A DNA stretch of 64,000 nt from a virus (Duplodnaviria; Caudoviricetes). The notes under the pieces are model-generated. The model was not told where the DNA came from and ran no database searches. It was given only the letters and a program-made list of their open reading frames with translations. Numbering within the stretch: position 1 is the first letter of the stretch; every line of letters begins with the position of its first letter. The stretch covers positions 24,862 through 88,861 of the IMG/VR virus record IMGVR_UViG_3300028797_000143; one strand, written 5' to 3'. The translations under genes and the position numbers were made by a program. This document shows positions 10,322 through 46,608 of the stretch, one piece after another.

Positions 10322-10383
10322 AAGACATGAAATACAGATTCTATCCGAGTTTGGATACTTACACTTTTCAGTGGTTTTGAAAT

Positions 10384-10632: not shown

Positions 10633-11111
10633 TAAGAAGGACACCTTTGAAAAGGACTTCCAAGAAAAGGGAGCCCAACTATACCGCAGATATGGATAGG
10701 GTTTTCCAGTACTATATCAGGCTGAGGGACGTCATGCCGGGAGGGTATGGGAGATGTATCTCATGCGGTAAGATACGACCTTTCAACCACCTTCAGGCAG
10801 GCCATTTTTATAGTCGAAGACATATGAGTACGAGGTGGAACGAAGATAACGTCCATGCCGAGTGCGAGGGCTGTAACTGCTTTGATGGCGATCATCTCTT
10901 AAGCTACCAGCAGAACCTTGCCAAGAAGATAGGCATGGAGAGGATGCAATACCTTGCCGTGGCTCATAACCAGACGAGGAATTGGCATCCCTTCGAGATA
11001 CAGACTATGGTCAAGCACTATGGAGAGGAGGTCATACGCCTCGCCTCCGTAAAGGGTCTGCCCATTGCCGAGGATGTCATGCGTATCATCAGAAAGTACC
11101 AGAAGATGTAA
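10629..11111 (+). CDS. NinG/Rap-like endonuclease
   Basis: YIRLRD...CISCG...AGHFYSR...RWNEDNVHAECEGCN. Confidence 0.8.
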   Translation: MIRRTPLKRTSKKREPNYTADMDRVFQYYIRLRDVMPGGYGRCISCGKIRPFNHLQAGHFYSRRHMSTRWNEDNVHAECEGCNCFDGDHLLSYQQNLAKKIGMERMQYLAVAHNQTRNWHPFEIQTMVKHYGEEVIRLASVKGLPIAEDVMRIIRKYQKM

Positions 11112-11185
11112 AAATTGGAGCACGTCTCACGACGGGCTCCAAATTAACCAATTAAACAGGGAGTTATGAGAACTCGGTCTGTTCG
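11108..11185 (-). ncRNA. candidate small antisense RNA 1 (anti-leader)
   Basis: Minus-strand promoter (TATCTTTG 11189-11196, CTTG 11217-11220), 5' hairpin with CUCAU loop, terminator GGAGC...GCTCC plus T-run; no plausible ORF. Confidence 0.55.
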
Positions 11186-11227
11186 GTGCAAAGATACAAT
11201 GTTATCTTGAATCTTGCAAGTAAATCG

Positions 11228-11291
11228 GTAAAAAGCCTGCTTCCGCAGGTAGAAAAGAGAGAAAACTCTTGAGAGAAATGGAATTATTTAA
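11228..11291 (-). ncRNA. candidate small antisense RNA 2
   Basis: Minus-strand promoter (TACCTTTG 11297-11304, TTTG 11325-11328), terminator CCTGC-GGAA-GCAGG-CTTTTT; no ORF. Confidence 0.55.
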
Positions 11292-16161: not shown

Positions 16162-16599
16162 ATGAAAAAGGAAATCAGAAAAGATGTCAGAGAGTACATC
16201 CTAAGCAGAGTAAACGAGACGCTGGCACGCCTCGGAGTGAGCGAGAAGGTCGTAGAGACGAACGAGTGGGAAGATAAGTACCGCGACAAGCTTCACTATA
16301 ATTTCGAGAGTGCACCCATCAAGCAGATGCCGATGATGTTCAAGAGACTTGTGGTAAGCGGCCACCTCGTAAGCGTCGAGACGAAAGAAGATGACAGGTT
16401 CTTCAAAGTCTCTCAGCAGAACGACATCGTTGTAGCGGTCTTCGGCTACGAATACAACCACTTCGGAGGAGGCTCCAACGGCTGTGACATAGGCCGCATG
16501 GTCTTCGCAGTAAGCAAAGATCTCCCCAAGAGTTTCGAGAGTGAGATGGGTGATGTGGCAGACGTATATATCCGCAAGTTGGAAGGAGTAACGATATGA
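16162..16599 (+). CDS. hypothetical protein
   Basis: First ORF after promoter and leader motif. Confidence 0.7.
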   Translation: MKKEIRKDVREYILSRVNETLARLGVSEKVVETNEWEDKYRDKLHYNFESAPIKQMPMMFKRLVVSGHLVSVETKEDDRFFKVSQQNDIVVAVFGYEYNHFGGGSNGCDIGRMVFAVSKDLPKSFESEMGDVADVYIRKLEGVTI

Positions 16600-17273
16600 G
16601 ACAGGAAAATGTATATTGGGCTGCGGAGGATATTCCATCCAACAAGCTCGAAAGCATGGGTGTAAGAAACCTTACTGACGTGGAGTTGGTATCAATCGTC
16701 ATAGGAAACGGTGACGCGGAAGCGTCTCTGGAGAAAGCCCGTGAATTTCTTTCCAAATTCGGTTATAGACTTGACAGTATCAGTATGCGCACTCCATCTC
16801 AGATGTGGAGAGACCAAGGAATCGAAGAGAAGGATTCGCTTAGAATGTTGGCTTCTCTGGAACTTGGCAGAAGGATGATAATGGATGCTGAGAAAGTGGA
16901 GAAGATAGATTGCTCTGTTAAGGCTTATATGTATTCAAGAAAATACCTCTCGGGTCTTGACCATGAAGAGTTCTGGCTTTTCTCCCTTAAGGCAAACAAA
17001 GATATTATTTCCTTCAAACAAATCTCCAAGGGAGGTATAGATGCCACACTTGTTGATTTAAGGGTTTTGTTCAAGGAGGCCATCGTCAATAGCGCTTCAA
17101 TCATTGTCGCTGTCCACAACCATCCGAGCGGAAGTGTTCGTCCCAGCAGGGATGATGATATGCTTACGGATAGGATACAAAGAGCGGCAAAGATGCTTGA
17201 CTTTAAGTTCTTAGACCATATCATTGTCGCTGATGGTCAGTATTACTCATACAAAGAAGAAGGAAAACTATGA
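16596..17273 (+). CDS. radC: RadC-family JAB-domain protein
   Basis: HEEFW...HNHPSGSVRPSRDD...LDHIIV. Confidence 0.9.
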   Translation: MRQENVYWAAEDIPSNKLESMGVRNLTDVELVSIVIGNGDAEASLEKAREFLSKFGYRLDSISMRTPSQMWRDQGIEEKDSLRMLASLELGRRMIMDAEKVEKIDCSVKAYMYSRKYLSGLDHEEFWLFSLKANKDIISFKQISKGGIDATLVDLRVLFKEAIVNSASIIVAVHNHPSGSVRPSRDDDMLTDRIQRAAKMLDFKFLDHIIVADGQYYSYKEEGKL

Positions 17274-23385: not shown

Positions 23386-23432
23386 TTTTAACTATAATTA
23401 TTTGCATATTTCGCGGAAAATTTGTATCTTTG
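23386..23432 (+). promoter_or_regulatory. extended phage promoter, copy 3 (heads the modification cluster)
   Basis: TTTTAACTA-N6-TTTG-N20-TATCTTTG. Confidence 0.8.
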
Positions 23433-23532
23433 CATGAAATCAATGGATATTATGCTTAATAATAGTTAAATTAAAGGCATTTTGATGATAAAAAGTTCGA
23501 TAAATCAATTAAACATGTAATTTTGCAAACAG

Positions 23533-24384
23533 ATGGAAAACGAAGGTTATGACATCGACGTTCTTAGAGAGTTTATTGCCCGATGTGAATGGAAGTGGGC
23601 GAGGACAATGGAAGAGGTTCCTCATGAATACATCTATCGCGGAAGGTGTGCTCTCACGGACAAAGAGTTCTATTACTTTTTGAATGCTCAGGTGTATCAT
23701 GGAATCGAAGAGTGGTGGGGAAAAGGCAAGCGCCCGTACCTGCACATCGACGGATACAAGTATTGGACGATGGGAGGCTATGGCCCCGAGAACAGGACGA
23801 TGAATCGGCAGAAAGAGTTCGATGAGTTCAATGTTTTTGAGTGGCCGATACCGTGTAACTATTCTCAGCAGGAGATGGAAATCATGGCGCTGACAATCGT
23901 CAAGACGTTTGGGAAGAGTGTCTTCGAGGCGGGTATTGCCAATGGCGACTTCGTGAAGATGTCGGGTATAAAGCCCGAAAACTATTATGGAGTAGACCCG
24001 GCCAAGAAAGCGGTAGCCCATTTTAGGATAGGGGCGGCTAAGTTCTACCAACGATGCTCATGCAAGTCCTTTGAAGAGGCGATAGCCAAATGGAAGAATG
24101 GCGAGAGTGTAGTGATAGCGTTATTCGGAACGGCGTCATACTTGATGCATCAATACCTTGAAAGGTTGAACGAGATAGGTGGTGACTATTGCCTGATGTT
24201 CTATCGCGAGGGGTATACTCCAGACGAGTATAAGGAGATGCATCACATGGGCTATACAAAGAGTGACCTTCATAGAATGTTTCCAAGGGCCAATTTCTAT
24301 AATCATCAAAAATACATCACAGTATCAAGTCAGAAGTTAATATGGCAGCAGCCGATAACGGTTCCAGATTTATTCTCACAATGA
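23533..24384 (+). CDS. two-domain protein: PHEY/YKYWTMG domain plus degenerate methyltransferase-like domain
   Basis: C-terminal half aligns by eye with the next gene (GVDP, ALFG.ASYL, LMFY...Y.P). Confidence 0.65.
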   Translation: MENEGYDIDVLREFIARCEWKWARTMEEVPHEYIYRGRCALTDKEFYYFLNAQVYHGIEEWWGKGKRPYLHIDGYKYWTMGGYGPENRTMNRQKEFDEFNVFEWPIPCNYSQQEMEIMALTIVKTFGKSVFEAGIANGDFVKMSGIKPENYYGVDPAKKAVAHFRIGAAKFYQRCSCKSFEEAIAKWKNGESVVIALFGTASYLMHQYLERLNEIGGDYCLMFYREGYTPDEYKEMHHMGYTKSDLHRMFPRANFYNHQKYITVSSQKLIWQQPITVPDLFSQ

Positions 24385-24402
24385 TGTGATGGCAATGAAA
24401 GA

Positions 24403-24942
24403 ATGAATAATTCGAAATCCCAATACGACGAGATAGCTGAATGCTACGACACCCTGTTTACAGACGAGTCGAGTATCGCAGAGAACGCAGAGGTAGGAGA
24501 AATGCTCCTACCTCTTAGTGGTTCTGTACTTGACATAGGCTGTGGAACGGGGCTTCTAACCGAGATTGTTGACATTAACCCTGATAAGTATTGTGGCGTA
24601 GATCCAAGTGCCAAGATGTTGGGGAAGTTCAAGATGAAGCACCCGACGTACACCAATTTGGTGTGCGCCCCATATGACGGCTATTGTGTGGATTGTAACA
24701 AGTTCGACAATATCATCGCTCTCTTCGGTTCGGCTTCGTATTTGGAGAATAAGGCTCTCATCAAGCTTGCCATAACCGATAAGCGCAAGTTTCTTATGTT
24801 CTACAAGGATAGCTATCATCCTGTGACCTATGAGATGTGTGGAGTCGAATTTGAACACAGCAGGCTCTCAAAGAAGATACTGTCTGCTATATTCAACAAG
24901 AATAAAGTAGAGGAGTTTAGGAACTATTTAATAGTAAGATGA
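24403..24942 (+). CDS. class I SAM-dependent methyltransferase
   Basis: VLDIGCGTGLL, GVDPSAKML. Confidence 0.85.
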   Translation: MNNSKSQYDEIAECYDTLFTDESSIAENAEVGEMLLPLSGSVLDIGCGTGLLTEIVDINPDKYCGVDPSAKMLGKFKMKHPTYTNLVCAPYDGYCVDCNKFDNIIALFGSASYLENKALIKLAITDKRKFLMFYKDSYHPVTYEMCGVEFEHSRLSKKILSAIFNKNKVEEFRNYLIVR

Positions 24943-24943
24943 T

Positions 24944-25498
24944 ATGGACATACAGTTTATCGTAATGACCACGAGCTTTGGAGGCCGTGACATCTCTCAC
25001 CTCCATGAAGCCATTCCGAATCTTATAGTTTGCAAGGACTATAACCATGATGCAATGGGCAACTTCCTTAATTCCATGAATCTTACGGAAGACCCAGCCA
25101 TCCACTTGGAGGACGATATAATCCTCTGCGACAACTTCTACGAGAAGGTGATGGATGCTGTGAATCAGTACCCGGACTATATCATTAACTTCTTCTCGCT
25201 GCGAAAGAAGGACTACGAGCTGCGCAAGCCATATTTCGAGGCGGGGGCTAAGTTCATGATGAACCAATGCTTCTATATTCCTGCGGGTGTAGGCCCTCAG
25301 ATTGCGGAGTTCTGGAAGACGTGGCCGCGGAAGGTGGAGCATCCTACAGGCTATGATATACTGATGGCTGATTGGATGAAGTCCAAGAAGATGAAGTACG
25401 TCCAGTGGTTCCCGCATCTTGTGAATCATGTGGAGTGTAAGTCACTCATCAACCCCAAGCGCAGCAGCAAGCGTTCCGACAAGTTTTTCACGAAATAA
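24944..25498 (+). CDS. GT-A-fold glycosyltransferase-like protein
   Basis: IHLEDDIIL, YDILMADW, PHLVNH...S. Confidence 0.6.
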   Translation: MDIQFIVMTTSFGGRDISHLHEAIPNLIVCKDYNHDAMGNFLNSMNLTEDPAIHLEDDIILCDNFYEKVMDAVNQYPDYIINFFSLRKKDYELRKPYFEAGAKFMMNQCFYIPAGVGPQIAEFWKTWPRKVEHPTGYDILMADWMKSKKMKYVQWFPHLVNHVECKSLINPKRSSKRSDKFFTK

Positions 25499-25505
25499 TA
25501 TAAAT

Positions 25506-26249
25506 ATGGAGAATTACCTATCACAGATTGTAGTGATGAACGTCTATCGGCGAGAGAGGGAAGGTAAGTACCTGAAGAAGCTCATAGACATCAGCGCAAA
25601 GCCCTATGGCATCCCCGTACAGATCTCGATGGACGACGGGAGCCTGGGCGTATGGAAGAACTTCTGTCAGACGTTGACCATGGACGGCGGCTTGGAGGAT
25701 AAGCCCTTCCGAATGGTGGTACAGGATGATGTGTCTTTCGACCGTAACATCCTGCCGAAGATACAGCATATCTTGAAATATGCTCCGAAAGACAAGATTA
25801 TCGTGCTCTACAACCCCACGAACACCGATTATCTCGAATGTCACAAGCAGGGCAAGCACGTATTGGCCACCGACATCAACTTCTGGCTACAGGCCGCCAT
25901 TTATCCAAACAGCTTCACGAAGGAGTTTGTCGAGACGATGGACGTACAGGCCAAGGAGGAGCGTAACGATGATGACCGCCTCTCTGCCTACCTGCAGGTT
26001 CGCAAGGAGAAGCTGTTCGCCATTGTGCCGTCGCTCATCCAGCATTATGGTGCTTTCCGCAGCAACTTCAAGGTTTCTGGAGCCGTCGGCGGTGTCATTC
26101 GTAACAGCTCTACCTACGACAATCAGTTCGACGTGGAGAGTGTCGATTGGGAGGCTGAGTTTAATAATCCTTTTATCGCCAAGCTGCGCAAGGACTATGC
26201 TAAAGTGGTGATGAAGGAGGAGTTCCTTAAAGAATGGGGGAAGTTCTGA
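25506..26249 (+). CDS. GT-A-fold glycosyltransferase-like protein
   Basis: VVQDDVSF, DDDRLSAY, PSLIQH...S. Confidence 0.6.
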   Translation: MENYLSQIVVMNVYRREREGKYLKKLIDISAKPYGIPVQISMDDGSLGVWKNFCQTLTMDGGLEDKPFRMVVQDDVSFDRNILPKIQHILKYAPKDKIIVLYNPTNTDYLECHKQGKHVLATDINFWLQAAIYPNSFTKEFVETMDVQAKEERNDDDRLSAYLQVRKEKLFAIVPSLIQHYGAFRSNFKVSGAVGGVIRNSSTYDNQFDVESVDWEAEFNNPFIAKLRKDYAKVVMKEEFLKEWGKF

Positions 26250-26250
26250 T

Positions 26251-26709
26251 ATGGCTAACGAGAATCTTGCATTGAAGCTTGCCAAGGACGGCATTGAGGT
26301 TGAAATGATGAAGCCTCTAAAGATTGACTATGTGAGTGTGGACGACATCATGCCCAACGATTACAACCCTAACACTCATACAGCAGACTCATTCGACCTA
26401 CTCATCAAGTCGCTGTTGTATTTTGGTTTCACACAGCCTATCGTGGTACACCGCCCGACGATGAAGATTGTGGACGGCGAGAACCGCTATCGTGCGGCAT
26501 GTGTCATTGGATATAATCTCGTCCCCGTCTGCTTCGTGGACTTCGACGATGAGAAACTGAAGTACGCCACCATCATGCACAACATGGCGCGAGGCCATAA
26601 CAATGACGAGATGATGAAGCGCCTGACAGACTACCTTGATACCCATTTCGATTCGAAGACCGACAAGGTGCTGCTTACAGACCGCGACAAATACCGCAAA
26701 CAGGAATGA
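26251..26709 (+). CDS. ParB/Srx (IbrB-like) domain protein
   Basis: PNDYNPN...GFTQPIVV...IVDGENRY...HNMARG. Confidence 0.8.
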   Translation: MANENLALKLAKDGIEVEMMKPLKIDYVSVDDIMPNDYNPNTHTADSFDLLIKSLLYFGFTQPIVVHRPTMKIVDGENRYRAACVIGYNLVPVCFVDFDDEKLKYATIMHNMARGHNNDEMMKRLTDYLDTHFDSKTDKVLLTDRDKYRKQE

Positions 26710-27404
26710 AGTACAAGTGTGACATCAAGTTTATGGCAGTGCCGAGCAGAATGCAAAACGTGGTGACGCTTTGCAATCAACTTGGCTTGTCTTATAACGA
26801 TGTCGCTGTTGACCACGATATGCGCGGTCTGCCATTGCTTACGAGTCAGAAGGCTTTTTCTTTGCCACGTAAAGATGGAGTCACACATCGCCTCGTGCTA
26901 CAGGATGACTTGATACTCAATCCCTATCTCATGGAGAGTATACAAGCATTGGTCAATCGTTTTCCAGACAATCCAATAGCCCTCTATACTTACAAGCGTG
27001 AAGAGCACGACGCGGATTTGAAGCAGGGTGTTTACAAGCTTCATTTCATCCCCGGCCTCGCTATTATCATGCCGCTAAAGGTTATGGATGGTATTATTGA
27101 GGTTTATAAGGACTACCCACTATTTCGTGATGACGATTGGTTCTACAGCTGGTATTGCAAGCGCAATGACATCAAGTGTTATGGCGTGATACCAAATCTT
27201 GTGACCTTAAATTGGGACTTTGAATCCACGTTAGGTAATAATGTCCTTAAACGCTATAAGAACAAAATATATACAGACCAGCGCGTAGATATAGCTTCTT
27301 TGAAATTGAACGCCGATACTTACGGCGACAAATATATCAATCTTACAGACCGAGAATTTAATAGAATAAACGATGATTGTTGTAGACGTAGTAATTCCAA
27401 CTAA
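26706..27404 (+). CDS. GT-A-fold glycosyltransferase-like protein
   Basis: LVLQDDLIL, RDDDWFYSWY, PNLV...S. Confidence 0.6.
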   Translation: MKYKCDIKFMAVPSRMQNVVTLCNQLGLSYNDVAVDHDMRGLPLLTSQKAFSLPRKDGVTHRLVLQDDLILNPYLMESIQALVNRFPDNPIALYTYKREEHDADLKQGVYKLHFIPGLAIIMPLKVMDGIIEVYKDYPLFRDDDWFYSWYCKRNDIKCYGVIPNLVTLNWDFESTLGNNVLKRYKNKIYTDQRVDIASLKLNADTYGDKYINLTDREFNRINDDCCRRSNSN

Positions 27405-28038
27405 CACGTTGGATGAACAGATTAGAGCCATCACTCAGAACTCGATTTACAGCCTGAAAAACAGTGAGACGAGTAATGTGAAGTTCAATGTTGTGGTGTG
27501 CGAGCAGAATAAGGATGCAGAGGATTACGACCAAGTAGACCTTATGCTTCATTACGATTTCCCCTTCTGCTTCAATAAGGTGCTTAACTATGGTGCCAAG
27601 CATTGCTCGAACAAGTATATCATGTTCGTCAATAATGACATCATGTACTGCCGTGGCTTTATTATGCCACTATTGAGCGCCGCCATGATGGGCTATCAGT
27701 CACTCTCTCCTACAGATCCGCACAAAGATAAGCCGTGCAACGAGCCTTTTGTGGAAGGGTATGGAATCGACCTCGAACTGAAAGGGTGGTTCATAGTCTG
27801 CGACCGTCAGATGTTCGACTCTATCGGCGGGTTCGATGAGAGCGTTGACTTCTATTGGAGCGACAACCTCTACAAGGAGCAGTTGAAGAAAGCACACATC
27901 AAACACGTCCGCGTCACCAACTCCTTCGCTGTACACTTTGGACGCTCTACGCTCCGCAAGCATGACAAGGAGAAACGTATTGAGCTTGCCGATGGACAAG
28001 GTGAGAAATTCTTGGAACTGACAGGACACAAAAGATAA
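27373..28038 (+). CDS. GT2-family glycosyltransferase
   Basis: VDVVIPT, FNKVLNYG, YIMFVNNDI, GGFDES, VHFGRST. Confidence 0.8.
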   Translation: MIVVDVVIPTNTLDEQIRAITQNSIYSLKNSETSNVKFNVVVCEQNKDAEDYDQVDLMLHYDFPFCFNKVLNYGAKHCSNKYIMFVNNDIMYCRGFIMPLLSAAMMGYQSLSPTDPHKDKPCNEPFVEGYGIDLELKGWFIVCDRQMFDSIGGFDESVDFYWSDNLYKEQLKKAHIKHVRVTNSFAVHFGRSTLRKHDKEKRIELADGQGEKFLELTGHKR

Positions 28039-28042
28039 AGAT

Positions 28043-29215
28043 ATGATATTTTACGGAGAAAAGAATGTTTACGAAGCCGCACTCGACCGAATCCGATATA
28101 TTTTCGACGAGTTCTACGGTAAACGTCCTATCATCGTCACCATTTCTGGCGGCAAGGACTCTACGGTGACACTTTACCTTGTTCATGAGGTTATGATGGA
28201 GCGTGGTATCGAGAAGATACCTGTTCTCTTTCTCGACCAAGAGGCCGAAGCTCCACAAACCACAGACTACATCAGGGAGATTATGCACCTTCCATGGGTA
28301 GAACCATATTGGGTGCAGACCTATTTTAAGGAGTGGAACGCCTCGAAGGGTGAATGGTTTAACGTATGGGGGCCTGGCGAGCAGTGGTGTCGTGAGAAAG
28401 AACCTAATAACCCCTATGCTGATATGGAACTGAGCACCAACGTCTATTTCACAAAGACGCTCAGCTGTGTGCAGTATTCTCTCTTTGGCAAGAGTTTCGT
28501 ATCCCTTGGCGGTGTGCGCATTGAGGAGTCTCCAGCACGTCTCTCAGGCCTTACCAACTGCGAGGTCATCGAAGGGACGGGTATCACATGGGGTAAGGGT
28601 GGTGGCTACTACAAGAATGGTGAGCCAAAGGCTATGGTACTCTATCCGATATGGGATTGGAAGTGTTACGATGTTTGGTATTACATCTTCAGCAACCGAA
28701 TCCCTTATTGCAAGCTTTACGACTATCTTTTCTCCGAGCAGCCATTACGTGACTGCCGTGTGAGTTCTCTTATCCACGAGCAAGCTATCAAGAATCTCGA
28801 AATCATCCGTCGTATTTCTCCTGAATTTTATGAGCGTTTACAACGCCGTGTAAAGAATGTTAATTCGACAGTGCAGGTCTATGCCGAGTTGATACACTAT
28901 ATCAATTGGACTTTCCTTCCTAAGTACTTCAATTCATGGGAAGAGTACGTGGAATATCTTGCCGACAACCTTGTAGGCGACAAGACAAAGGTGCCAGGCA
29001 TCAAACGCATGTACCATAATGCCCTTGATAGAGGGCTTGAAGGTGTAGGAAAGTGGGAGGAAGGCCGCGTCTTTGTGACGCGTCGCATCTCTCAGACAGC
29101 TGCCATCTGTATTCTTTCAGAAGATTTTGAGATGAAGCGCATACAGAATATTCAGCGCACCCTTCACGCTTATTACAACGAGAATTACGAAGCAATTAAA
29201 AACGCAAACAAATGA
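28043..29215 (+). CDS. PAPS-reductase-family protein, IbrA-like
   Basis: VYEAALDRIRYIF...SGGKDS PP-loop, FLDQEAE, GVRIEES..R, YPIWDW, RVSSLIHE. Confidence 0.85.
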   Translation: MIFYGEKNVYEAALDRIRYIFDEFYGKRPIIVTISGGKDSTVTLYLVHEVMMERGIEKIPVLFLDQEAEAPQTTDYIREIMHLPWVEPYWVQTYFKEWNASKGEWFNVWGPGEQWCREKEPNNPYADMELSTNVYFTKTLSCVQYSLFGKSFVSLGGVRIEESPARLSGLTNCEVIEGTGITWGKGGGYYKNGEPKAMVLYPIWDWKCYDVWYYIFSNRIPYCKLYDYLFSEQPLRDCRVSSLIHEQAIKNLEIIRRISPEFYERLQRRVKNVNSTVQVYAELIHYINWTFLPKYFNSWEEYVEYLADNLVGDKTKVPGIKRMYHNALDRGLEGVGKWEEGRVFVTRRISQTAAICILSEDFEMKRIQNIQRTLHAYYNENYEAIKNANK

Positions 29216-29871
29216 ATATAAGAGAAGAAATCAAGAAGGAGTTCGATGCCGCACAAGACAAGCTGGCATACCTGAACGACCTGAGAAAGTACATCAGTAC
29301 GCTTTCTCCCGAGAATGTGAATCCCGTTGACTGCGTGCTTTGGGTTCCCAAGGAGCAGGTTGTGGCCAACAACTACAACCCCAACCATGTTGCCGACAAG
29401 GAGATGAAGCTGCTGTACACGTCCGTCAGAGAGGATGGCTATACCATGCCTATTGTGACTATCTGGGATGACAACCTGAAGAAGTACGTCATCATCGACG
29501 GATTCCACCGCAACCTCGTCATCCGTAAGTTCCCCGACATCGATGCCCGCTGTAAGGGTATGTTACCTATCGTAGTACTCGACAAGGACATCGACCAGCG
29601 CATGGCCAGTACCATTCGTCACAACCGCGCCCGTGGCTCACACTCCATTGACGGCACGGCGAATATCGTCTTCCAGATGTTGAAGGACGGCAAGAGTGAG
29701 CGCGAGATCTGCGAGAACCTTGGCATGGAGCAACGCGAGTTTGGCAAGCTGATGTTTGTGACGGGCTTTGCCAAAATCTTCAAGAACTATCATTACTCTG
29801 CCTGTGTGGAGAAGGTGGTAGACGAGAAACGAGTAGCACGCGAAACGAAACAAAAAGAAGCGAAGAAATGA
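29212..29871 (+). CDS. IbrB-like ParB-domain protein
   Basis: ANNYNPNHVA..EM.LL..S..EDGYTMPIV, IDGFHR, ASTIRHNRARGSH. Confidence 0.85.
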   Translation: MNIREEIKKEFDAAQDKLAYLNDLRKYISTLSPENVNPVDCVLWVPKEQVVANNYNPNHVADKEMKLLYTSVREDGYTMPIVTIWDDNLKKYVIIDGFHRNLVIRKFPDIDARCKGMLPIVVLDKDIDQRMASTIRHNRARGSHSIDGTANIVFQMLKDGKSEREICENLGMEQREFGKLMFVTGFAKIFKNYHYSACVEKVVDEKRVARETKQKEAKK

Positions 29872-30542
29872 ATATTCAGACAGTAAAGATTGGGGAGATT
29901 TACCCCTACTACAACAACCCTCGAAACAACGCCGACGCGGTACAGCCCGTTATTGAGAGTTTCAAGAAGTTCGGCTTCATCAAGCCTATCATGGTCGACA
30001 AGGACCATATCATCATCTGCGGTCATACACGTTACATCGCGGCCTTCCAGTGCGGCTGTGAGTATGTGCCTATCATCGTCAGCGATATGCCAGAGGAGCA
30101 GGCTAAGCGCTTCCGCATCCTCGACAATAAGATTGCTGAGAAGTCAGGCTTCGATGAGAACGAGCTGATAGAGGAGCTGAAGAAGATGGAGGCTCCCGAG
30201 GAGATGCAAGCATTCTTCTTCGAGGACATCAACCGCATGATTAACTTCGACTTCAACCAGTTCCAGAACAACTTCAACGCTGCGGGTGGCGGTTTGCACG
30301 ACATCACCGATTTCCAATATGAGGAAGGAGGCGGTGAGGACTACCAGCCAGCACCGCAAGATACGACTGAATATGAGCCGTCCGAGGAATCTGAGGAAGA
30401 AGAGTTCAACACATTTAGTGAAGAAGACCCCGCCAAGGACCTCTTCGTGGTACAGATGCGCCCCGATGCCACCAGATTCATGAAGGTGGTATGCCCCTAT
30501 TGCGGAAACATTGAGGAAATCGACTTAGACATGGAGGACTAA
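29868..30542 (+). CDS. ParB-like nuclease-domain protein with C-terminal zinc ribbon
   Basis: PYYNNPRNN...FGFIKPI...IICGHTRY...RILDNK; CPYCG. Confidence 0.8.
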   Translation: MNIQTVKIGEIYPYYNNPRNNADAVQPVIESFKKFGFIKPIMVDKDHIIICGHTRYIAAFQCGCEYVPIIVSDMPEEQAKRFRILDNKIAEKSGFDENELIEELKKMEAPEEMQAFFFEDINRMINFDFNQFQNNFNAAGGGLHDITDFQYEEGGGEDYQPAPQDTTEYEPSEESEEEEFNTFSEEDPAKDLFVVQMRPDATRFMKVVCPYCGNIEEIDLDMED

Positions 30543-30545
30543 ACT

Positions 30546-31157
30546 ATGGCACAAGACATCAAATTAAAGAAGGAAATCGTAGAGGTTGACATCAACCAGA
30601 TTACCCCCTACGAAGGTTCGCATAAGACAGACGCGAGTATCAACCTGCTCATCGAGAGTATCAAGGACTTCGGCGTGAACCAGCCTATCACCGTAGATAA
30701 GAACTACGTTGTGGTGACGGGAAATGGCGTTTATAAGGCCGCAAAGGAGGCGGGGCTGACCAAACTCCCGTGTATCATCCTTGATGACCTCACAGACGAG
30801 GAAATCAAGCAATATCGTATTGCGGACGATAAGACACAGGAGTTCGCCACATGGAACGAGAAGAAACTCCGTCAGGAGCTCTCTTACCTCCAAGACCCGA
30901 CGTCGATGCAGATGTACTTCGATGAGAGTATCGTCGGTATGCTCGGCCTCGATGCGAAGGTGAAGCAGAATCCTATCGTCTCGACACAGCAGACAGAGAC
31001 AGCCGGTATTGTCAATGCAATGACAAAGGCCGAGAAGGACAAGAAGTTCAAGGAGGAACTGAACAACGTCAATGCAAGTATGAACATACAGCCCGCCGAG
31101 TACTTTGAGTACCATTGCTCGAAGTGTGGCCGTCTGGTAAAAGTAAAGGTAAACTGA
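30546..31157 (+). CDS. ParB-like nuclease-domain protein with C-terminal zinc ribbon
   Basis: FGVNQPITVD...VVTGNG...YRIADDK; CSKCG. Confidence 0.8.
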   Translation: MAQDIKLKKEIVEVDINQITPYEGSHKTDASINLLIESIKDFGVNQPITVDKNYVVVTGNGVYKAAKEAGLTKLPCIILDDLTDEEIKQYRIADDKTQEFATWNEKKLRQELSYLQDPTSMQMYFDESIVGMLGLDAKVKQNPIVSTQQTETAGIVNAMTKAEKDKKFKEELNNVNASMNIQPAEYFEYHCSKCGRLVKVKVN

Positions 31158-31158
31158 T

Positions 31159-31698
31159 ATGGCAAACGACAACAAAATGGCAGGATTGGTACACTCCATG
31201 CCATCTCCTGTAGGTCACCCTCCACGCTTTAAGACGCCGAAAGCACTATGGGATAAGTTCGTGGAATACTGCGATTGGATTGATGGTAATCCGTGGCAGG
31301 AGAAGACCGCATCTAACGTCCTTGACTCTATTGGCGCTGGCGAAGAACAGAAACAGAAGAACGCTCTTCGTCAGAATGTGGTAGTAACCCAGAGGGCCTA
31401 TACTCTATATGGCTTCTGCGCCTATGCAGGCATCCATTACAAATGGGCCGACTTCCGTAAGAACTATATCGATAAGACGGGGTTTCCACCTGTCATTGAG
31501 CAGATTGAGAATGTCATCTGCGCCCAACAGGTGGATGGAGCTATGATCAATAAGTTCAACTCTAACCTCGTGGCACGCCTTAACGGATTCGCCGATAAGC
31601 AATGGATGGAGCTGACAGGTCGCGGTGGCGATGACTTCAAGTGGCCTAAACTCACAGATGCGGACATAAAGTATCTTAAAGATGTAAACGGTTTATAA
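31159..31698 (+). CDS. terminase small subunit (putative)
   Basis: GHPPRFKTP..LW..F.EY, directly upstream of terL with TAATG overlap. Confidence 0.7.
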   Translation: MANDNKMAGLVHSMPSPVGHPPRFKTPKALWDKFVEYCDWIDGNPWQEKTASNVLDSIGAGEEQKQKNALRQNVVVTQRAYTLYGFCAYAGIHYKWADFRKNYIDKTGFPPVIEQIENVICAQQVDGAMINKFNSNLVARLNGFADKQWMELTGRGGDDFKWPKLTDADIKYLKDVNGL

Positions 31699-33176
31699 TG
31701 GATTTTCAGCAACAGAAACTTATCCATAAGCAACTGTTACTGTCATCAACCCTCCGTTTCACGCAAGGGTTCTTCCAGTACATGAATGGTGCTCCTTACA
31801 TCGTAGGTGAGCACCATATTAAGATATGCCAATATCTTGACAAGGTTGTGAAGGGTGAGATTCAAAAGCTGATAATCAACATAGCTCCGCGCTATGGAAA
31901 AACGGAGCTTGTATCCAGAATGTTCCCCGCCTACGGGTTTGCGCTTAATCCAAGGTCGCTTTTCTTACATCTCAGTTATAGCGGTAGCTTGACACTTGAT
32001 AATTCCGTTGCAACAAAAGACATTATCAAATCGAAGTACTTCCAGAATGTGTTTAATGTAGAGTTTGACCGCCGTATAAATTCAGGCTCGAAATGGAATA
32101 CAACAGTAGGTGGTGGTGAGTATGCTACCTCTATGCTCGGACAGATTACAGGTTTCGGTGCAGGTCGTGTAGAGCTTGACTACGATAAGGATGAAGATAA
32201 GCTGTTTGATGATTTCACCGCACGTTATAACCCGAATGGCTTCTCAGGGGCGATTATCATCGATGACCCCATCAAACCAGACGAAGCTTTGAGTGACAAG
32301 ATACGTGAAAAGGTGAACCTCCGCTTCGAGACAACCATCCGAAACCGTGTCAACTCCCGCAAGACACCTATCATCATCATCATGCAGCGGCTCCATGAGC
32401 ATGACCTCTGCGGATACCTTCAGGAGATAGAACCTGACGAGTGGACTGTCCTCTCACTTCCTGCTATCATGACTGATGGACATGGGAATCAGAGACCGCT
32501 ATGGCCGTTCAAGTTCACCATCCCCGAGTTGATGAAGATTAAGAACGCCAACTCCTATGTCTTCGAGACGCAATACATGCAGAACCCCACCCCGCTCGAA
32601 GGACTTATGTACCGCCCGTTCAAGACCTACGAGATACTACCTCCGCGTCGCTCTGCGAAGTTTATTGGCAATGTTACCGACCCAGCTGATACGGGAGCGG
32701 ATTGGCTGTGTTCCATCTGCTTCGATGTACACCCGGAAGGTTACTATGTCACCGATGTCCTCTATACGAAGAAGCCTGCAGAATACACCGAGCAAGCAAT
32801 GGCGCAGATGTTATGCAAGAACGAGACGGGTGTTTGCTTCATAGAGTCCAACAATGGAGGACGATTGTTCATGCGTAACGTGGAGAGGATAACCCGTGAG
32901 TACGAAAATAGGCAGACGCAGTTCGTGACCTATACTACCCACATGAACAAACAGGTGAGAATCTTCTCCCGATCCAATGAGGTGTCTAATATGCTCATCT
33001 TCCCACAAGGATGGGAACATAGGTGGCCAGAGTTCTATCGTGACTTGACATCATACCGAAAAGAGGGCGCGATGGCTCATGACGATGCACCTGACTGCGC
33101 AACGGCGGTAATTGAGAGATGTGAGAATTGGGGAGGTACGGCTACTGATTCGGAGATACTAAGTGATTTCTTATAA
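31698..33176 (+). CDS. terL: terminase large subunit
   Basis: APRYGKT Walker A, IIIDDPIK, IMQRLHEHDL, QYMQNP, HDDAPDC nuclease motif. Confidence 0.92.
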   Translation: MDFQQQKLIHKQLLLSSTLRFTQGFFQYMNGAPYIVGEHHIKICQYLDKVVKGEIQKLIINIAPRYGKTELVSRMFPAYGFALNPRSLFLHLSYSGSLTLDNSVATKDIIKSKYFQNVFNVEFDRRINSGSKWNTTVGGGEYATSMLGQITGFGAGRVELDYDKDEDKLFDDFTARYNPNGFSGAIIIDDPIKPDEALSDKIREKVNLRFETTIRNRVNSRKTPIIIIMQRLHEHDLCGYLQEIEPDEWTVLSLPAIMTDGHGNQRPLWPFKFTIPELMKIKNANSYVFETQYMQNPTPLEGLMYRPFKTYEILPPRRSAKFIGNVTDPADTGADWLCSICFDVHPEGYYVTDVLYTKKPAEYTEQAMAQMLCKNETGVCFIESNNGGRLFMRNVERITREYENRQTQFVTYTTHMNKQVRIFSRSNEVSNMLIFPQGWEHRWPEFYRDLTSYRKEGAMAHDDAPDCATAVIERCENWGGTATDSEILSDFL

Positions 33177-33177
33177 T

Positions 33178-33816
33178 ATGGAAAAGCTGTCAGTTATTAC
33201 TATAAACCTCAACAACAAGGAAGGACTTAAGAAGACTATAGATAGCGTCATCAAACAGACTTGTTTCAGTCTTCTGGAGTTTATTGTAATCGATGGAGAG
33301 AGCACAGATGGAAGCGTAGACGTTATCCGAGAAAACGAAAGATACTTGAAGTATTGGGTGTCAGAGAAGGATGGTGGAATCTACGATGCCATGAATAAAG
33401 GTATACGCATGGCCAACGGGGAATTCTGCCTATTTCTTAACAGCGGAGACACATTCCATTCAGAATGCTCCTTTGGCCTATCTATACCATACCTCAACAA
33501 AGACATCGTTTATGGCAATATGATAATAGATGGAAAGGTTGCTACATACCCAGATAGATTAACTAACGGCTATTTCAGATATAACACTCTTCCACACCAA
33601 GCTTCGTTTATTCGTACTGCCCTATTGAAGAAGAGAGGATATGACACTTCTTATAGAGTTATATCTGATTGGATAAGGTTCAGAGAACTGATAATGGTAG
33701 GATGCTCATATAGGCACATAGATGTTCTTGTCAGCGACTTCGAGCCAGGAGGTATTAGCGCCGATTACAACAAGATAAAGACGGAGCGAAAGAGATATTT
33801 GGAATCTATTCAATGA
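33178..33816 (+). CDS. GT2-family glycosyltransferase (WcaE-like)
   Basis: LSVITINLNN, IDGESTDGS, EKDGGIYDAMNKGI, FLNSGD, HQASF. Confidence 0.88.
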   Translation: MEKLSVITINLNNKEGLKKTIDSVIKQTCFSLLEFIVIDGESTDGSVDVIRENERYLKYWVSEKDGGIYDAMNKGIRMANGEFCLFLNSGDTFHSECSFGLSIPYLNKDIVYGNMIIDGKVATYPDRLTNGYFRYNTLPHQASFIRTALLKKRGYDTSYRVISDWIRFRELIMVGCSYRHIDVLVSDFEPGGISADYNKIKTERKRYLESIQ

Positions 33817-33825
33817 TTTTAGTAT

Positions 33826-33872
33826 TTTTAACTATAAATATTTGCACAATTCATCAAAAACCCGTACCTTTG
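33826..33872 (+). promoter_or_regulatory. extended phage promoter, copy 4
   Basis: TTTTAACTA-N6-TTTG-N20-TACCTTTG. Confidence 0.8.
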
Positions 33873-33930
33873 TATATAAGAAAGAAAGGAAAGCCCTTTC
33901 AAACAGAAACCAATTAAACAGAGTACAGCT

Positions 33931-34395: not shown

Positions 34396-34586
34396 TGACA
34401 CGGCTATTGAAACGCGAAATATGGAGGAACGGAACCTGCATTTATTTCATTGAGAAGTATTACGAGAAGTTCGCCTCTGTGCCTCATTGGAGATACGGCG
34501 AGTACACAAGCCAAGGTAAGGTTGTCCAGAGTGACGGATTACTTAAGAAACCGAGTAAGAAACTAAACTACTTCCAGCTATCATGA
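34395..34586 (+). CDS. hypothetical protein
   Basis: Overlaps on both sides. Confidence 0.55.
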   Translation: MTRLLKREIWRNGTCIYFIEKYYEKFASVPHWRYGEYTSQGKVVQSDGLLKKPSKKLNYFQLS

Positions 34587-35425
34587 CACAGCTTACAAAG
34601 CCCATGTTGGCTACAGGATATGATAAGACCCGTGTGAAGTTCCCATGCATCGTCCAGACTAAATTGGACGGCGTGAGAGCGCTTCTCTGTTTGATTGGTA
34701 ATGAGGTACACATCCTTTCACGCACGGGGAAAGAGTATTATGTACCACACCTGAGAGAGTGGGCAGAGGGTCACAGAGACCTTCTCCCCCTCGACGGTGA
34801 AATCTACGCCTACAAGGATTTGACGTTCCAGCAGATCTGCTCGGCAGTGAAATGCAAATCGGATTGGACGGATAAGCTTAAGTTCGTGGCGTATGATAGA
34901 CCAATAACAGAAGAGACAAACATCAAAAGGTGGTCAAACCTTCTATCTGACTTGGAAAAGGTACAAGACCCCGTTAATCTCTGCCAGACGATAATATGCC
35001 ACTCTTTTGAGGAGATAGAACGATGGCATGACTTCTTCGTACAGCAAGGCTACGAGGGTGCTATCATCCGTAATATGGATGGTATGTATATCGAAGGAAG
35101 AAGCGGGAATCTTATGAAGCTGAAGAAATTCGACACTGACGAATACGAGATAGCTGATGTGATAGAGGCCAGCGGACAGGACAAGGGCACGGCAATATTC
35201 AAGCTGGTGGTGGCCGACTTCCTGTGGACGGAAGAGGCTCACCCAGCGGGCAAGCCATTTACGTTCTTTGCCCGCCCGACTGGGAGCAAGGTGCTCCGTG
35301 CAAGCTATCTGCGAGACCGTGAGAAGCTGATAGGCAAGCAGTGTACCATCCGGCATTTCGGATTCACGGACGGCGGTGTCATCCCCCGCTTCCCTGTGGC
35401 GTTAGGAATTAGAGACTATGAGTAA
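34583..35425 (+). CDS. ATP-dependent DNA ligase
   Basis: KLDGVRA (motif I), LDGEIY, YEGAIIR, LMKLK, RFPV. Confidence 0.9.
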   Translation: MTQLTKPMLATGYDKTRVKFPCIVQTKLDGVRALLCLIGNEVHILSRTGKEYYVPHLREWAEGHRDLLPLDGEIYAYKDLTFQQICSAVKCKSDWTDKLKFVAYDRPITEETNIKRWSNLLSDLEKVQDPVNLCQTIICHSFEEIERWHDFFVQQGYEGAIIRNMDGMYIEGRSGNLMKLKKFDTDEYEIADVIEASGQDKGTAIFKLVVADFLWTEEAHPAGKPFTFFARPTGSKVLRASYLRDREKLIGKQCTIRHFGFTDGGVIPRFPVALGIRDYE

Positions 35426-35640: not shown

Positions 35641-35687
35641 TTTTAACTATTATTCTTTGCGTATCTCACTGAACTTCAGTATCTTTG
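35641..35687 (+). promoter_or_regulatory. extended phage promoter, copy 5
   Basis: TTTTAACTA-N6-TTTG-N20-TATCTTTG. Confidence 0.8.
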
Positions 35688-35743
35688 CATATAGAAAGGA
35701 AGGGAGAGCCCTTCGAGTTAAAAACCAATTAAACAAGAAAGTT

Positions 35744-37340: not shown

Positions 37341-37387
37341 TTTTAACTAAAATAGTTTGCGCGTATGCGCAAAAATGCGTACCTTTG
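37341..37387 (+). promoter_or_regulatory. extended phage promoter, copy 6
   Basis: TTTTAACTA-N6-TTTG-N20-TACCTTTG. Confidence 0.8.
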
Positions 37388-37445
37388 CATATAAGGAAGA
37401 AGGAGGAGTGCTCCTTTAATCAAGAACCAATTAAACAGAAAAGTT

Positions 37446-37917: not shown

Positions 37918-38433
37918 ATGTTACGGTTTGCCTTATTGAACTACACTCCCAAGCGGTATATGAGACGTGCCAGCTTCGAGGCGCAGGAGTCAAATCGTTA
38001 CATCATTGACTTCAAGAACGGACGCAAGTATGCCATCCGAATCATAACGGATATGGTTTGTGAGACGCTATCGAAGACGAACATGGATAACACCATTATC
38101 GTGAACATCCCTGCAAGCTGTGAGAGGACAACAGAGCGGAGGTACAGGACGTTCATGAATGATGTGTGTGACAGGTGCGGGGCTGTGAATGGCTTCGGGC
38201 ATGTCCATGTCTTTGGGAAGAGGGAGAAGTCACATATCATACGTCACCACAGCCACCTTGACAATGTGAGGATAGACAATGACTTCTTCCGTGGTCGCAG
38301 GGTGATAGTGGTTGATGACATCTGTACCACAGGACAGACATCAAATAGTTTCATAGAACGCCTGAAGATGGCAGGTGCCGATGTTCGGATGGCGTTATTC
38401 ATAGCAAAGACAAAGAAATTCAAAACCAATTAA
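37918..38433 (+). CDS. phosphoribosyltransferase-fold (ComF-like) protein
   Basis: VIVVDDICTTGQT PRPP-binding loop. Confidence 0.8.
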   Translation: MLRFALLNYTPKRYMRRASFEAQESNRYIIDFKNGRKYAIRIITDMVCETLSKTNMDNTIIVNIPASCERTTERRYRTFMNDVCDRCGAVNGFGHVHVFGKREKSHIIRHHSHLDNVRIDNDFFRGRRVIVVDDICTTGQTSNSFIERLKMAGADVRMALFIAKTKKFKTN

Positions 38434-45180: not shown

Positions 45181-46608
45181 TTATTCTGCACTGAACATTC
45201 CTTCCATGGCGGCAGTAGAAGCAGCGGCCTGCCTTATGGCCTCCTGCGCCGCTTCCTCGTTGATCTGTTTGATGGTCTCATCGACATTCTGCGACTTGCC
45301 GATGCGCTGTATACTCTCACGCTGGCTCTCGACGGGCCTGCCTCCGTTGGCCTTCATGTGCATGTCTATCTGTGCCTGCTCGTCTTCGATGATGAACGGA
45401 GTGATGATATGTTCGACAACCACGTTGTCAATCTCGTCCCTCCAAGATACGTTGAGTTCCTTAAGGAAAGCCTTGATGACGTTACACTCGCGTTGTAAGA
45501 ACTCAATCCACGGGCCACTCTCTTCGCCAATCTTAAGATGCGCATCGGTAAGGAGCGTACGGCGTGAGTCGTAACCGATATTACCGAGAGACTTCATATT
45601 CTCAAAGGAGATGTCGGGCATCTGTGCCTGCATCCAATAGAACTTAAGGAGGTTGTCGATATGGTACTTCAAGGCTGCGTCGGACTGAGCCCATGAGACA
45701 TACCCCACATCACCGCCCTCCATGACGCGGTAGACCCTTCGAGACTCACCCTTATTCTCGGAGCCTTTTATCTCACCCTTCACCTTAAGGATAGGAGCGG
45801 AGTTATAGGCCACGACATCGGAGTTACGTGATAGGGTGTACTCCAAGTCTTCGCGTAGCGGTTGCAATCCGTCAAATACAGGCTGTGGGCGCATCAGGTA
45901 AGCACCAGGAATCTTATTGATGCTGATGGTCTCCTCTTGGCCGACCTCTTCCCACACTCCATTGGCTCCGTCGTGCTTCCACTTCTTATGTTTCTCTGCG
46001 GTAAAGGTCTCGAAGAAAACGACGGTATTCTCATTGCTCGTCTTCTTATCGTACTCAAAGGACATGGCAATCAGATCACCCTTCTCGTCAAAGAGGGGGT
46101 AGAGCTTGCATCCGTCCATGGGTGAGAAGGTCTGGCATTTCAACTTCCTCCGGCTTTCGAATCCATAGAGAGTGTTGGGGCTATCGGTTGTGTACCACAT
46201 GGTGAATATCTCACAGGAGGCGTAGTAGGCCGTTCCACGCTTGATGTTCTCGGCGTCAATGTGCGCCTTATTGTATATCTCCTCAATGGCATTGGCGATG
46301 GCCTTTCGTTTCTCATTGCCCTCTATGTTGGAGTATACACGCTTCACGGGGATGGCAAAGGTGAACTCTGTCATTCGCTTCGTGAGCAGCTTCTCCAGAC
46401 CAACTGTAAGACGTGCGGCCTTGTCAACGGAGCCGTCGGAGTGTACTTTATCCCTTCGGTTCTTCTTATCGGTTACGATAGTGTGGAACTTGGGCTCGTA
46501 GGACTTAAGAAGTTCACTCCATTCAGGTACGCTATAAGAGCGGTTCTTCAGCTCGGAAATGATTTTACTGATGTCGCTCTCTGCAAGAATTTCATTGATG
46601 TCTCTCAT
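45181..46608 (-). CDS. portal protein (SPP1 Gp6-like)
   Basis: 475 aa, upstream of MuF; portal-like pattern (LYPLFD, SRNSDVVAYNSAPIL, PDISFENM); promoter TAACTTTG on minus strand at 46632-46639. Confidence 0.8.
   Translation of the reverse strand: MRDINEILAESDISKIISELKNRSYSVPEWSELLKSYEPKFHTIVTDKKNRRDKVHSDGSVDKAARLTVGLEKLLTKRMTEFTFAIPVKRVYSNIEGNEKRKAIANAIEEIYNKAHIDAENIKRGTAYYASCEIFTMWYTTDSPNTLYGFESRRKLKCQTFSPMDGCKLYPLFDEKGDLIAMSFEYDKKTSNENTVVFFETFTAEKHKKWKHDGANGVWEEVGQEETISINKIPGAYLMRPQPVFDGLQPLREDLEYTLSRNSDVVAYNSAPILKVKGEIKGSENKGESRRVYRVMEGGDVGYVSWAQSDAALKYHIDNLLKFYWMQAQMPDISFENMKSLGNIGYDSRRTLLTDAHLKIGEESGPWIEFLQRECNVIKAFLKELNVSWRDEIDNVVVEHIITPFIIEDEQAQIDMHMKANGGRPVESQRESIQRIGKSQNVDETIKQINEEAAQEAIRQAAASTAAMEGMFSAE

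Follow-up and report, generated by a model that had tools for sequence, protein, structure and literature searches.

Introduction

The closest described counterparts of the locus examined here are the IbrA/IbrB unit of Escherichia coli and the YbdN/YbdM unit of strain K-12. In both, a PAPS_reduct plus DUF3440 gene is followed by a ParB/Srx gene; YbdN is a PAPS reductase/DUF3440 protein and YbdM is ParB-like (PMC9068703). A subsystem annotation calls these pairs "co-activators of prophage gene expression" (PMC5874904), and the literature that we found on IbrA/IbrB, DUF3440 or phage PAPS-reductase and ParB combinations consists of annotations and comparative surveys only, with no reaction assigned. 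Here we describe an IbrA/IbrB pair from a 64,000-nucleotide stretch of phage DNA (the window; bases 24862-88861 of the 88,861-bp IMG/VR virus record IMGVR_UViG_3300028797_000143, which is rated complete). By domain architecture and PHROG family (phrog_2302, phrog_2159) it is the same two-gene unit as the E. coli pairs, but it is embedded with three more ParB genes, two methyltransferases (MTases) and five glycosyltransferases (GTs) in the terminase operon.

Three other groups of systems resemble this arrangement in part. DndB/DndC, SspD and BrxP share with it a PP-loop enzyme of the PAPS-reductase family adjoining a ParB-superfamily protein; DndC needs a three-cysteine 4Fe-4S centre and a cysteine dyad (PMC10853773). 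A survey of the ParB-CTPase fold found that phage ParB folds are often fused to methyltransferases and also to acetyltransferases (PMC12704722). Finally, phage ParB homologs (ParB176) activate the thymine dioxygenase 5mYOX176 on double-stranded DNA (O'Toole et al., PNAS 2026, PMC13229309), and 5mYOX pathways co-occur with GTs (31%), ParB proteins (27%) and terminases (19%) (PMC13229309). The likeness to this last system is that orphan phage ParB proteins without an obvious DNA-binding domain would serve a DNA-modifying enzyme, in neighbourhoods rich in GTs, O- and N-methyltransferases, GNAT acyltransferases and terminases. With four ParB_N proteins, five GT-A enzymes and two MTases, the window carries the combination of ParB and GT or MTase near a terminase that marks 5mYOX pathways. 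It differs in having a PP-loop ATPase in place of the known priming enzyme, and four ParB proteins, not one.

The best explanation of our comparisons is that the region holds a mobile phage cassette in enlarged form, with a fixed core of IbrA, IbrB and a pair of ParB-N proteins and a variable arm that handles methyl, sugar, acyl or amine groups. Judged from the sequences, the cassette may be a ParB-assisted, post-replicative DNA-modification system in which an ATP-dependent enzyme does the priming and the decoration arms vary, those of the window being unusually rich in GTs, a reading to which we give an even chance.

A conserved core cassette joined to the terminase genes

Between positions 23533 and 33816 of the window, 14 plus-strand genes (g1 to g14) follow one another with gaps of -32 to +18 nt. 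They comprise two class I S-adenosylmethionine (SAM) methyltransferases, five GT-A-fold genes, four ParB-N genes, an IbrA-like PP-loop enzyme and the terminase genes terS (g12, GP3_package; 31159-31698, plus strand; Pfam 2e-16, phrog_606) and terL (g13; 31698-33176, plus strand; phrog_38 3e-91). An earlier reading of the window (the original prediction) had listed two MTases, GT-A paralogs, GT2s, four ParB genes, an IbrA-like gene, terS and terL, and every one of these types is present at its predicted position. The tight packing that it described also holds, apart from a 71-nt overlap of g3 and g4, which is most likely a longest-ORF artefact, with g4 starting at 25506. The start of g14 may be the ATG at 33178.

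The window was scanned for the Bacteroidetes promoter consensus TTTG-N17-22-TAnnTTTG, which occurs 18 times where 0.9 occurrences are expected by chance. A single exact match (TTTG, 20 nt, TATCTTTG) at 23401-23432 on the plus strand precedes the run, as had been predicted; the next lies at 33841-33872, with none between, and no strong plus-strand terminator is found ahead of 35603. The simplest reading of this layout is therefore that all 14 genes form one operon with terS and terL, although weaker internal promoters are possible. A sigma-70 scan gave 28 sites against 20 expected, a consensus that is uninformative for Bacteroidetes. At 23503-23515 (plus strand) the operon has a 13-mer leader, AATCAATTAAACA, which is common to other operons of the phage (10 matches in the window against 0.02 expected); the phage leader AAYCAATTAAACA follows both of the promoters named above. 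Because non-packaging operons share this promoter type and leader, operon structure alone is no proof of late timing, so that from the proposal that the genes are timed with packaging we retain the operon shared with the terminase, not the timing. Across the window, AACCAATTAAACA recurs about 70 nt 3' of Bacteroidetes promoters (33841-33920, 35656-35735, 37356-37437 and others), in 10 copies against 0.02 expected.

To separate core from accessory genes, we compared the locus with 80 IMG/VR loci whose terL is about 64% identical to that of the window. Genes g9 to g12 are present in 79 of them, g8 and g5 in 78, g4 in 76, and g1 and g2 in 71, the remainder being incomplete contigs. Gene order is constant, and g9-g12 stand upstream of terL in 79 of the 80, a synteny by which the arrangement is evidently not due to chance. 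Three genes, g3, g7 and g14, occur in none of the relatives and g6 in just two. By this comparison the core is g1, g2, g4, g5, IbrA, IbrB, two ParB genes, terS and terL, and the window represents that conserved cassette plus four lineage-specific glycosyltransferase additions. The same synteny bears out the original prediction of an uncharacterised multi-enzyme cassette joined physically and transcriptionally to terS and terL. The 14 genes do not make up one fixed pathway, since the four additions are missing from all or nearly all relatives; two of them, g6 (0.48) and g14, also have the lowest GC content at third codon positions (GC3) of the operon.

The cassette recurs beyond these relatives. 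Locus L091 carries g1, g2, g3 (72% identical), IbrA, IbrB, two ParB genes, terS and terL. Locus L088 has a portal of another family and a different gene order: arginine decarboxylase, IbrA, IbrB, a methyltransferase with a DPPW motif, a GT2-like gene, a g4-like gene (38% to g4), two ParB genes, a stand-alone copy of the g1 N-terminal domain, terS and terL. The decarboxylase (1826-2494 of L088), directly upstream of IbrA, is of the pyruvoyl-dependent type and hints at an amine (agmatine) arm.

Cultured phages were compared through 50,697 phage records. A megablast search with the 10.4-kb region found no match in them; at the protein level, g8 is matched best by gp158 (35%) of Hendrix (NC_047977), a lytic phage of Microbacterium. 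Circular permutation of the Hendrix genome (PMC7302621) places gp158 beside gp1, and the gene order reads gp154, gp155 ("glucosyltransferase"), gp156, gp157 (GNAT), gp158 (IbrA), gp1 (IbrB), gp2, gp3, gp4, gp5 (terL) and gp10 (ligase). Homologs of g3/g4 (gp154, 1.6e-14), g2 (gp156, 31%, 4e-7), g8, g9 (gp1, 45%) and g10/g11 (gp2 and gp3, g10-like, 43-45%) thus follow the order of the window and end in terL, with a ligase a few genes downstream, in a phage whose terL is just 25% identical to ours. Hendrix gp154, three genes from the IbrA gene, is the sole homolog of g3 in the phage records. Differences are the actinobacterial host, the GNAT N-acyltransferase and another "glucosyltransferase" in Hendrix, and the lack there of a g1-type N-domain MTase, g5, g6, g7 and g14. 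The paper on this phage does not discuss the module (PMC7302621). Shorter versions with ParB, IbrA, IbrB and terminase occur in Arthrobacter phage Kovu (gp5-gp10, with an acetyltransferase in addition) and Mycobacterium phage Obutu (gp1-gp6).

Conversely, we examined 19 loci in bacterial genomes that have a related terL (35-60% identical) and a full 10-kb upstream flank. Seventeen lack the cassette, and by this measure it is an accessory and not packaging machinery. The two others have IbrA/IbrB: the Segatella copri N016-9 prophage (NZ_JAPDUQ010000001.1, at about 517.6-539.0 kb) carries the whole core, and one Bacteroidaceae metagenome-assembled genome carries IbrA, IbrB, two ParB genes and terS only. 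Conservation across host phyla, persistence through changed gene order, and the fusion of IbrA to IbrB described below argue for the cassette being one functional unit.

IbrA, IbrB and the ParB proteins

The product of g8 (28043-29215, plus strand) is an IbrA-like PP-loop ATP pyrophosphatase with an SGGKDS motif and PAPS_reduct (PF01507, 2e-16) and DUF3440 (PF11922, 27.9-28.8 bits against a cut-off of 25) domains; it belongs to phrog_2302 (7.5e-66), and the same Pfam model has matches in the E. coli control genome. Pairs of the IbrA/IbrB type are annotated in 218 of the 50,697 phage records, and occur in gut prophages and E. coli K-12 as well. When nine IbrA-type proteins from five host groups were aligned, SGGKDS was invariant and several acidic, basic and aromatic positions were kept, and no cysteine was conserved among the nine. 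As DndC requires its cysteines, the analogy with Dnd and Ssp phosphorothioate systems drawn in the original prediction fails, and we rejected a Dnd-type reading. The N-terminal matches of g8 to DndC, BrxP and SspD models are weak, cover the PP-loop region only and fall far below the cut-offs (TIGR03183, 30.5 bits against 290). Nor did Pfam or PADLOC return a cysteine desulfurase (DndA/IscS-like), DndD or DndE among the 14 cassette products or the flanks. Other PP-loop enzymes adenylate their substrate, which is then attacked by a nucleophile. By analogy, IbrA more likely follows this course, with an oxygen or a nitrogen as the attacking group.

IbrB (g9; 29212-29871, plus strand; phrog_2159 1e-64) is a ParB/Srx protein with a DGFHR motif, encoded in the same orientation and overlapping the g8 stop by 4 nt. 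In two other loci, L097 (4299-5906) and L098 (2655-4262), IbrA and IbrB form a single 535-aa ORF directly upstream of terS and terL.

Three more ParB_N proteins are encoded in the operon. The first, g5 (26251-26709, plus strand; Pfam 4.7e-12), belongs to the core, has the motif GENRYRA and always adjoins g4. The others form a pair: g10 (29868-30542, plus strand; Pfam and PHROG matches) has PYxNPR and GHTRY motifs, and g11 (30546-31157, plus strand) is its degenerate paralog (blastp against g10, 2e-24), with TGNGVY at the corresponding place. Both PYxNPR and GHxR are lost from g11 in the window lineage and kept in L088 and Hendrix. Each member of the pair has exactly one C-terminal CxxC in all five lineages compared (the window, L010, L091, L088 and Hendrix), which suggests a zinc site shared by two chains that would close a g10/g11 heterodimer.

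In g5, g10 and g11 the ParB domain most resembles that of fusions between ParB and DNA methyltransferases (phrog_498, up to 1e-28; PADLOC MTase_II, up to 7e-17). It is the N-terminal ParB part of such fusions (phrog_498; PMC12704722; single-stranded-DNA methyltransferases, PMC7736820) that the window proteins match best; unlike in the fusions, ParB and MTase are separate genes here, and g1 and g2 are of the class I Methyltransf_25 type, not N6_N4_Mtase. Traits of chromosome-segregation ParB proteins are absent from the cassette ParBs, which have no GERRxRA patch, no helix-turn-helix (HTH) and no ParA match (TIGR00180, 44 bits against a cut-off of 58).

Methyltransferases and glycosyltransferases

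Gene g1 (23533-24384, plus strand) encodes an N-terminal domain of about 95 aa, for which there is no Pfam model, followed by a class I SAM methyltransferase. In its AlphaFold2 (AF2) model (pLDDT 92), residues 92-268 match many MTases (VIA Z 12-14.6), among them NDP-sugar C-methyltransferases, and the motif I glycines are invariant. Its paralog g2 (24403-24942, plus strand; blastp 2e-14) is a class I SAM methyltransferase of the Methyltransf_25/11/12 type (Pfam 1.4e-8). A metK gene (SAM synthetase, by Pfam scan) that could supply the cofactor lies elsewhere in the window, at 47144-48337 on the plus strand, as had been noted. A third MTase-like gene, also said to lie elsewhere in the window, was not found by similarity, by a DPPY-motif scan or by Pfam scans of about 30 other ORFs.

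The N-terminal domain of g1 (residues 1-96, 23533-23820) is compact and strongly conserved, with W, PHxY, G-KYWTM and NR positions, and its profile found no solved relative in the PDB. A profile search gathered 2,653 representative clusters, mostly stand-alone proteins of 90-130 aa. In a scan of 74 members for partner domains, 14 had a class I methyltransferase, four a PDDEXK_4 nuclease and one a GmrSD_N restriction protein, and HTH domains also occurred. Stand-alone copies also lie beside the cassette in L088 (8295-8771), L097 (2912-3151) and L098. The fusions to nucleases, to the GmrSD_N protein and to HTH domains point to a domain that works on or near DNA.

Between g2 and g4, in the slot that g3 takes up in the window, relatives carry a gene of 218-220 aa that the window phage lacks. 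It has the layout of a beta-class amino-methyltransferase, motif IV before motif I, and its motif reads DPAG in the relatives and DPPW in the L088 homolog. The slot may be filled otherwise: L006 and L016 have a Methyltransf_23-like gene, and L060 has a MetK N-terminal fragment. This last gene (L060, 3761-4549; 262 aa) matches the N-terminal domain of SAM synthetase only (4e-9); in the window phage a full metK stands 14 kb downstream.

Among the glycosyltransferases, g4 (25506-26249, plus strand) is the core member. Its AF2 model (pLDDT 89) has the Rossmann-like fold and the DxD-type acidic motif of GT-A enzymes, with D74 and D75 invariant, and Foldseek assigns probability 1.0 to GnT-I, Mimivirus R655 and COLGALT1 at a TM-score of about 0.5. 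Structure searches, which had been advised for each ORF, returned a class I MTase fold for g1 and a GT-A fold for g4. In the PDB, the structures closest to g4 belong to protein or glycan GTs (GnT-I, POMGnT1, COLGALT1, Mimivirus R655/R699). Among BFVD matches a Hendrix glycosyltransferase is one of the best, and the second-best is gp87 of Mycobacterium phage Ardmore, encoded at the right end of that genome. A tblastn search with g4 found no match in the phage records; searches of the PDB with the g1, g4 and g8 sequences gave nothing useful except a local match of the FAD-synthase PP-loop family, and a search of the ESM Atlas gave phage clusters and a weak GT25 lead only.

Together with g4, two accessory genes make up a set of weak but significant paralogs (blastp 5e-5, 2e-3): g3 (24944-25498, plus strand; phrog_854 2e-7), a small GT-A-like protein with an EDD motif, and g6 (26706-27404, plus strand; blastp), an insertion with a QDD motif. 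The second insertion, g7 (27373-28038, plus strand; phrog_22332 1.2e-19), is GT2-like. Last in the operon, g14 (33163-33816, plus strand; Pfam Glycos_transf_2 3e-17) is a lineage-specific, soluble, WcaE-like GT2 of low GC content (0.39); its NCBIfam wcaE match (1e-39) is below the cut-off, and it matches a GtrB-like PHROG over the soluble GT2 domain only (1.5e-10). The g14 gene, and perhaps g7 too, may be a later add-on with a different acceptor. No membrane helix is predicted in any of the 14 products (maximum KD19 below 1.6), all of which are predicted to be soluble.

A proposed pathway and its alternatives

The ParB partners, the IbrA-IbrB fusion, the nuclease fusions of the g1 N-domain, the DPPW enzyme of relatives and the published precedent (PMC13229309) together make DNA the best-supported target. 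The original prediction had left the choice between DNA hypermodification and virion glycosylation open; we favour the former, and the latter remains a rival for the glycosyltransferase arm. In the pathway that we propose, IbrA and IbrB would function together as a single enzyme whose substrate is double-stranded phage DNA that has already been replicated. Catalytic partners would be held or activated on DNA by the ParB-fold proteins, as the phage thymine dioxygenase is by ParB176, with g10 and g11 perhaps forming a heterodimer closed by a zinc site to which each contributes one CxxC. Using ATP, IbrA would adenylate an oxygen on a canonical nucleotide and so create an acceptor site, which the GT-A enzymes (g4, and here also g3, g6 and g7) would glycosylate and which g1, with its DNA-associated N-domain, and g2 would then cap. 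The modified DNA would then be packaged by the terminase encoded on the same message and be protected from host restriction at the next infection.

The role of IbrA in this pathway is the least expected part. Nothing in the whole 88.9-kb genome matches Tet_JBP (PF12851) at E<=1, a search that a divergent 5mYOX could escape, and thymidylate-synthase-like profiles have no match in the genome. The TAGT profile (PF20691) also has none genome-wide at E<=1, and g3, g4, g6 and g7 have no Pfam match to TAGT at E<=0.01, which leaves a distant GT-A kinship possible. DNA glycosylation would consequently need a new priming reaction, for which IbrA is the obvious candidate. We therefore put forward, tentatively and as a claim that we think will rather fail than hold, that IbrA/IbrB may represent a new class of DNA priming enzyme, in which a ParB-held PP-loop ATPase would adenylate a canonical base or the backbone, and sugars, amines (in cassettes with arginine decarboxylase such as L088) or acyl groups would be added without a hydroxymethyl-pyrimidine intermediate.

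Several observations weigh against DNA as the target. The same absence of Tet_JBP, thymidylate-synthase-like and TAGT genes means that no known route to a glycosylatable base is present in the genome. The ParB/Srx fold is also used by enzymes that do not act on DNA (Srx, SerK). In fold, g1 and g2 come nearest to methyltransferases of small molecules and NDP-sugars, and g4 has protein-glycosylating GTs and a mycobacteriophage GT among its structural neighbours. Five GT-A genes exceed the need of any known DNA glycosylation, a number that suits the building of a glycan on protein or lipid. Moreover, the IbrA/IbrB pair of Streptococcus thermophilus phage D4276 lies beside AcrIIA5, far from the terminase, and E. 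coli K-12 has the chromosomal pair ybdNM (PMC9068703).

These points bear first on the main rival for the sugar arm, which we consider unlikely: that the GT-A enzymes and the two MTases build a methylated glycan on the capsid or tail or another protein, with IbrA/IbrB and the ParB proteins serving a separate, neighbouring function. Virions of cluster F1 phages such as Che8 are glycosylated by phage GTs. The five GT-A-fold genes with a WcaE-like g14, the protein and glycan GTs and Ardmore gp87 near g4, the NDP-sugar C-methyltransferases near g1 and the predicted co-transcription with a morphogenesis gene pair would all fit such a role. Yet GTs of the g3/g4 type and MTases of the g2 type travel across phyla, rearranged, with IbrA/IbrB and ParB genes and not with capsid genes. 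In the window itself 12 to 17 kb separate the operon from the portal gene (SPP1-type; 45181-46608, minus strand) and the major capsid gene (50191-51756; Phage_cap_E, with a BACON domain at the C terminus), the portal being on the other strand. Fusion of the g1 N-domain to restriction-type nucleases and the DNA-type amino-methyltransferases in the same slot of relatives also speak against a virion substrate.

The low GC3 of g6 and g14 and the absence or rarity of g3, g7, g14 and g6 among relatives would fit a mosaic, in which IbrA/IbrB and the ParB proteins are one unit and the GTs and MTases are unrelated morons that alter a host surface polysaccharide. A temperate phage (integrase at 2396-3955) with a g14 that resembles capsule and exopolysaccharide GT2 enzymes could cause such lysogenic conversion. 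As an account of the whole region this is less probable again. Membrane helices and hydrophobic segments are predicted in none of the 14 proteins, and no flippase or Gtr-type partner of an O-antigen conversion module was found; these genes sit within the terminase operon and lack a separate promoter; and g1, g2 and g4 are kept with IbrA/IbrB in 71 to 76 of the 80 relatives as well as in L091, L088 and Hendrix.

A role in small-molecule or nucleotide-pool chemistry, to which we give a slightly lower probability, would have IbrA adenylate a metabolite or nucleotide; the ParB-fold NTPases, together with the GTs and MTases, would then synthesise or degrade a compound derived from nucleotides, perhaps to dampen host immune signalling or to supply replication with a modified dNTP. 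The PAPS_reduct family does include small-molecule adenylyl-transferases (CysD, and the local FAD synthase match), g1 and g2 resemble small-molecule MTases in fold, the D4276 pair adjoins AcrIIA5, and ParB/Srx proteins have been proposed as nucleotide-degrading effectors (PMC10853773). Left unexplained are the persistent place of the cassette directly upstream of terS and terL in four host phyla, the nuclease and HTH fusions of the g1 N-domain and the DPPW amino-MTase in the slot, and no linked nucleotide kinase or polymerase was found.

HNH proteins help terminase cutting in HK97-like phages, and the ParB-like proteins and IbrA might similarly be nucleases or site-recognition factors that help the terminase cut concatemers. 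This is very improbable, and we rejected it: the cassette does directly precede terS/terL in phages of Bacteroidales, Microbacterium, Arthrobacter and Mycobacterium, and ParB-fold proteins can nick DNA according to PMC12839542 (citing Maindola 2014), but related terminases manage without it in 17 of the 19 prophages, D4276 and the E. coli ybdNM pair have no terminase beside them (PMC9068703), and methyl- and glycosyltransferases have no role in cutting.

The phage and the surroundings of the operon

The phage is of a temperate, Bacteroidales type, and its terL is 64% identical to that of the S. copri N016-9 prophage and 49% identical to those of Bacteroides fragilis phages BF503P1 and BF486P2. 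The sequencing runs listed as containing the stretch are all DNA runs, and all come from bovine gut metagenomes. The genome also has an SF2 helicase and a DnaB helicase. In the next operon, an ATP-dependent DNA ligase (34583-35425, plus strand; phrog_114 9e-62) lies near terL, as in relatives and Hendrix; its association with the cassette is only possible.

Some neighbouring features are of separate interest. The BACON domain of the capsid protein may serve to bind glycans or mucin at the capsid surface. A RadC-like JAB domain protein is encoded in the early region (16596-17273), and a small phosphoribosyltransferase-domain protein (Pribosyltran 2.6e-7) at 37918-38433, in an operon that also carries the 13-mer leader. 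In six related phages (L076-L081, about 8843-11275 in each locus), terL encodes 810 aa and has an intein after about residue 67 (matches to the gp41-1 and DnaB inteins, 1.8e-11).

Implications

In the window the IbrA/IbrB pair stands at the centre of a modular cassette, the arms of which vary by lineage among sugar, methyl, acyl and amine. By sequence the cassette is common to phages of Bacteroidales and Actinobacteria. It lacks every known way to prepare DNA for glycosylation. Two culturable test systems can now be named, the lytic Microbacterium phage Hendrix and the S. copri N016-9 prophage. If the priming role of IbrA/IbrB is true, the pair would open a third route to phage DNA hypermodification, one that is driven by ATP and has interchangeable decoration arms. 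If DNA is indeed the target, the cassette would represent new DNA chemistry, with a bearing on how phages evade restriction, on phage therapy and the prediction of host range in gut Bacteroidales, and on enzymes as tools for labelling DNA.

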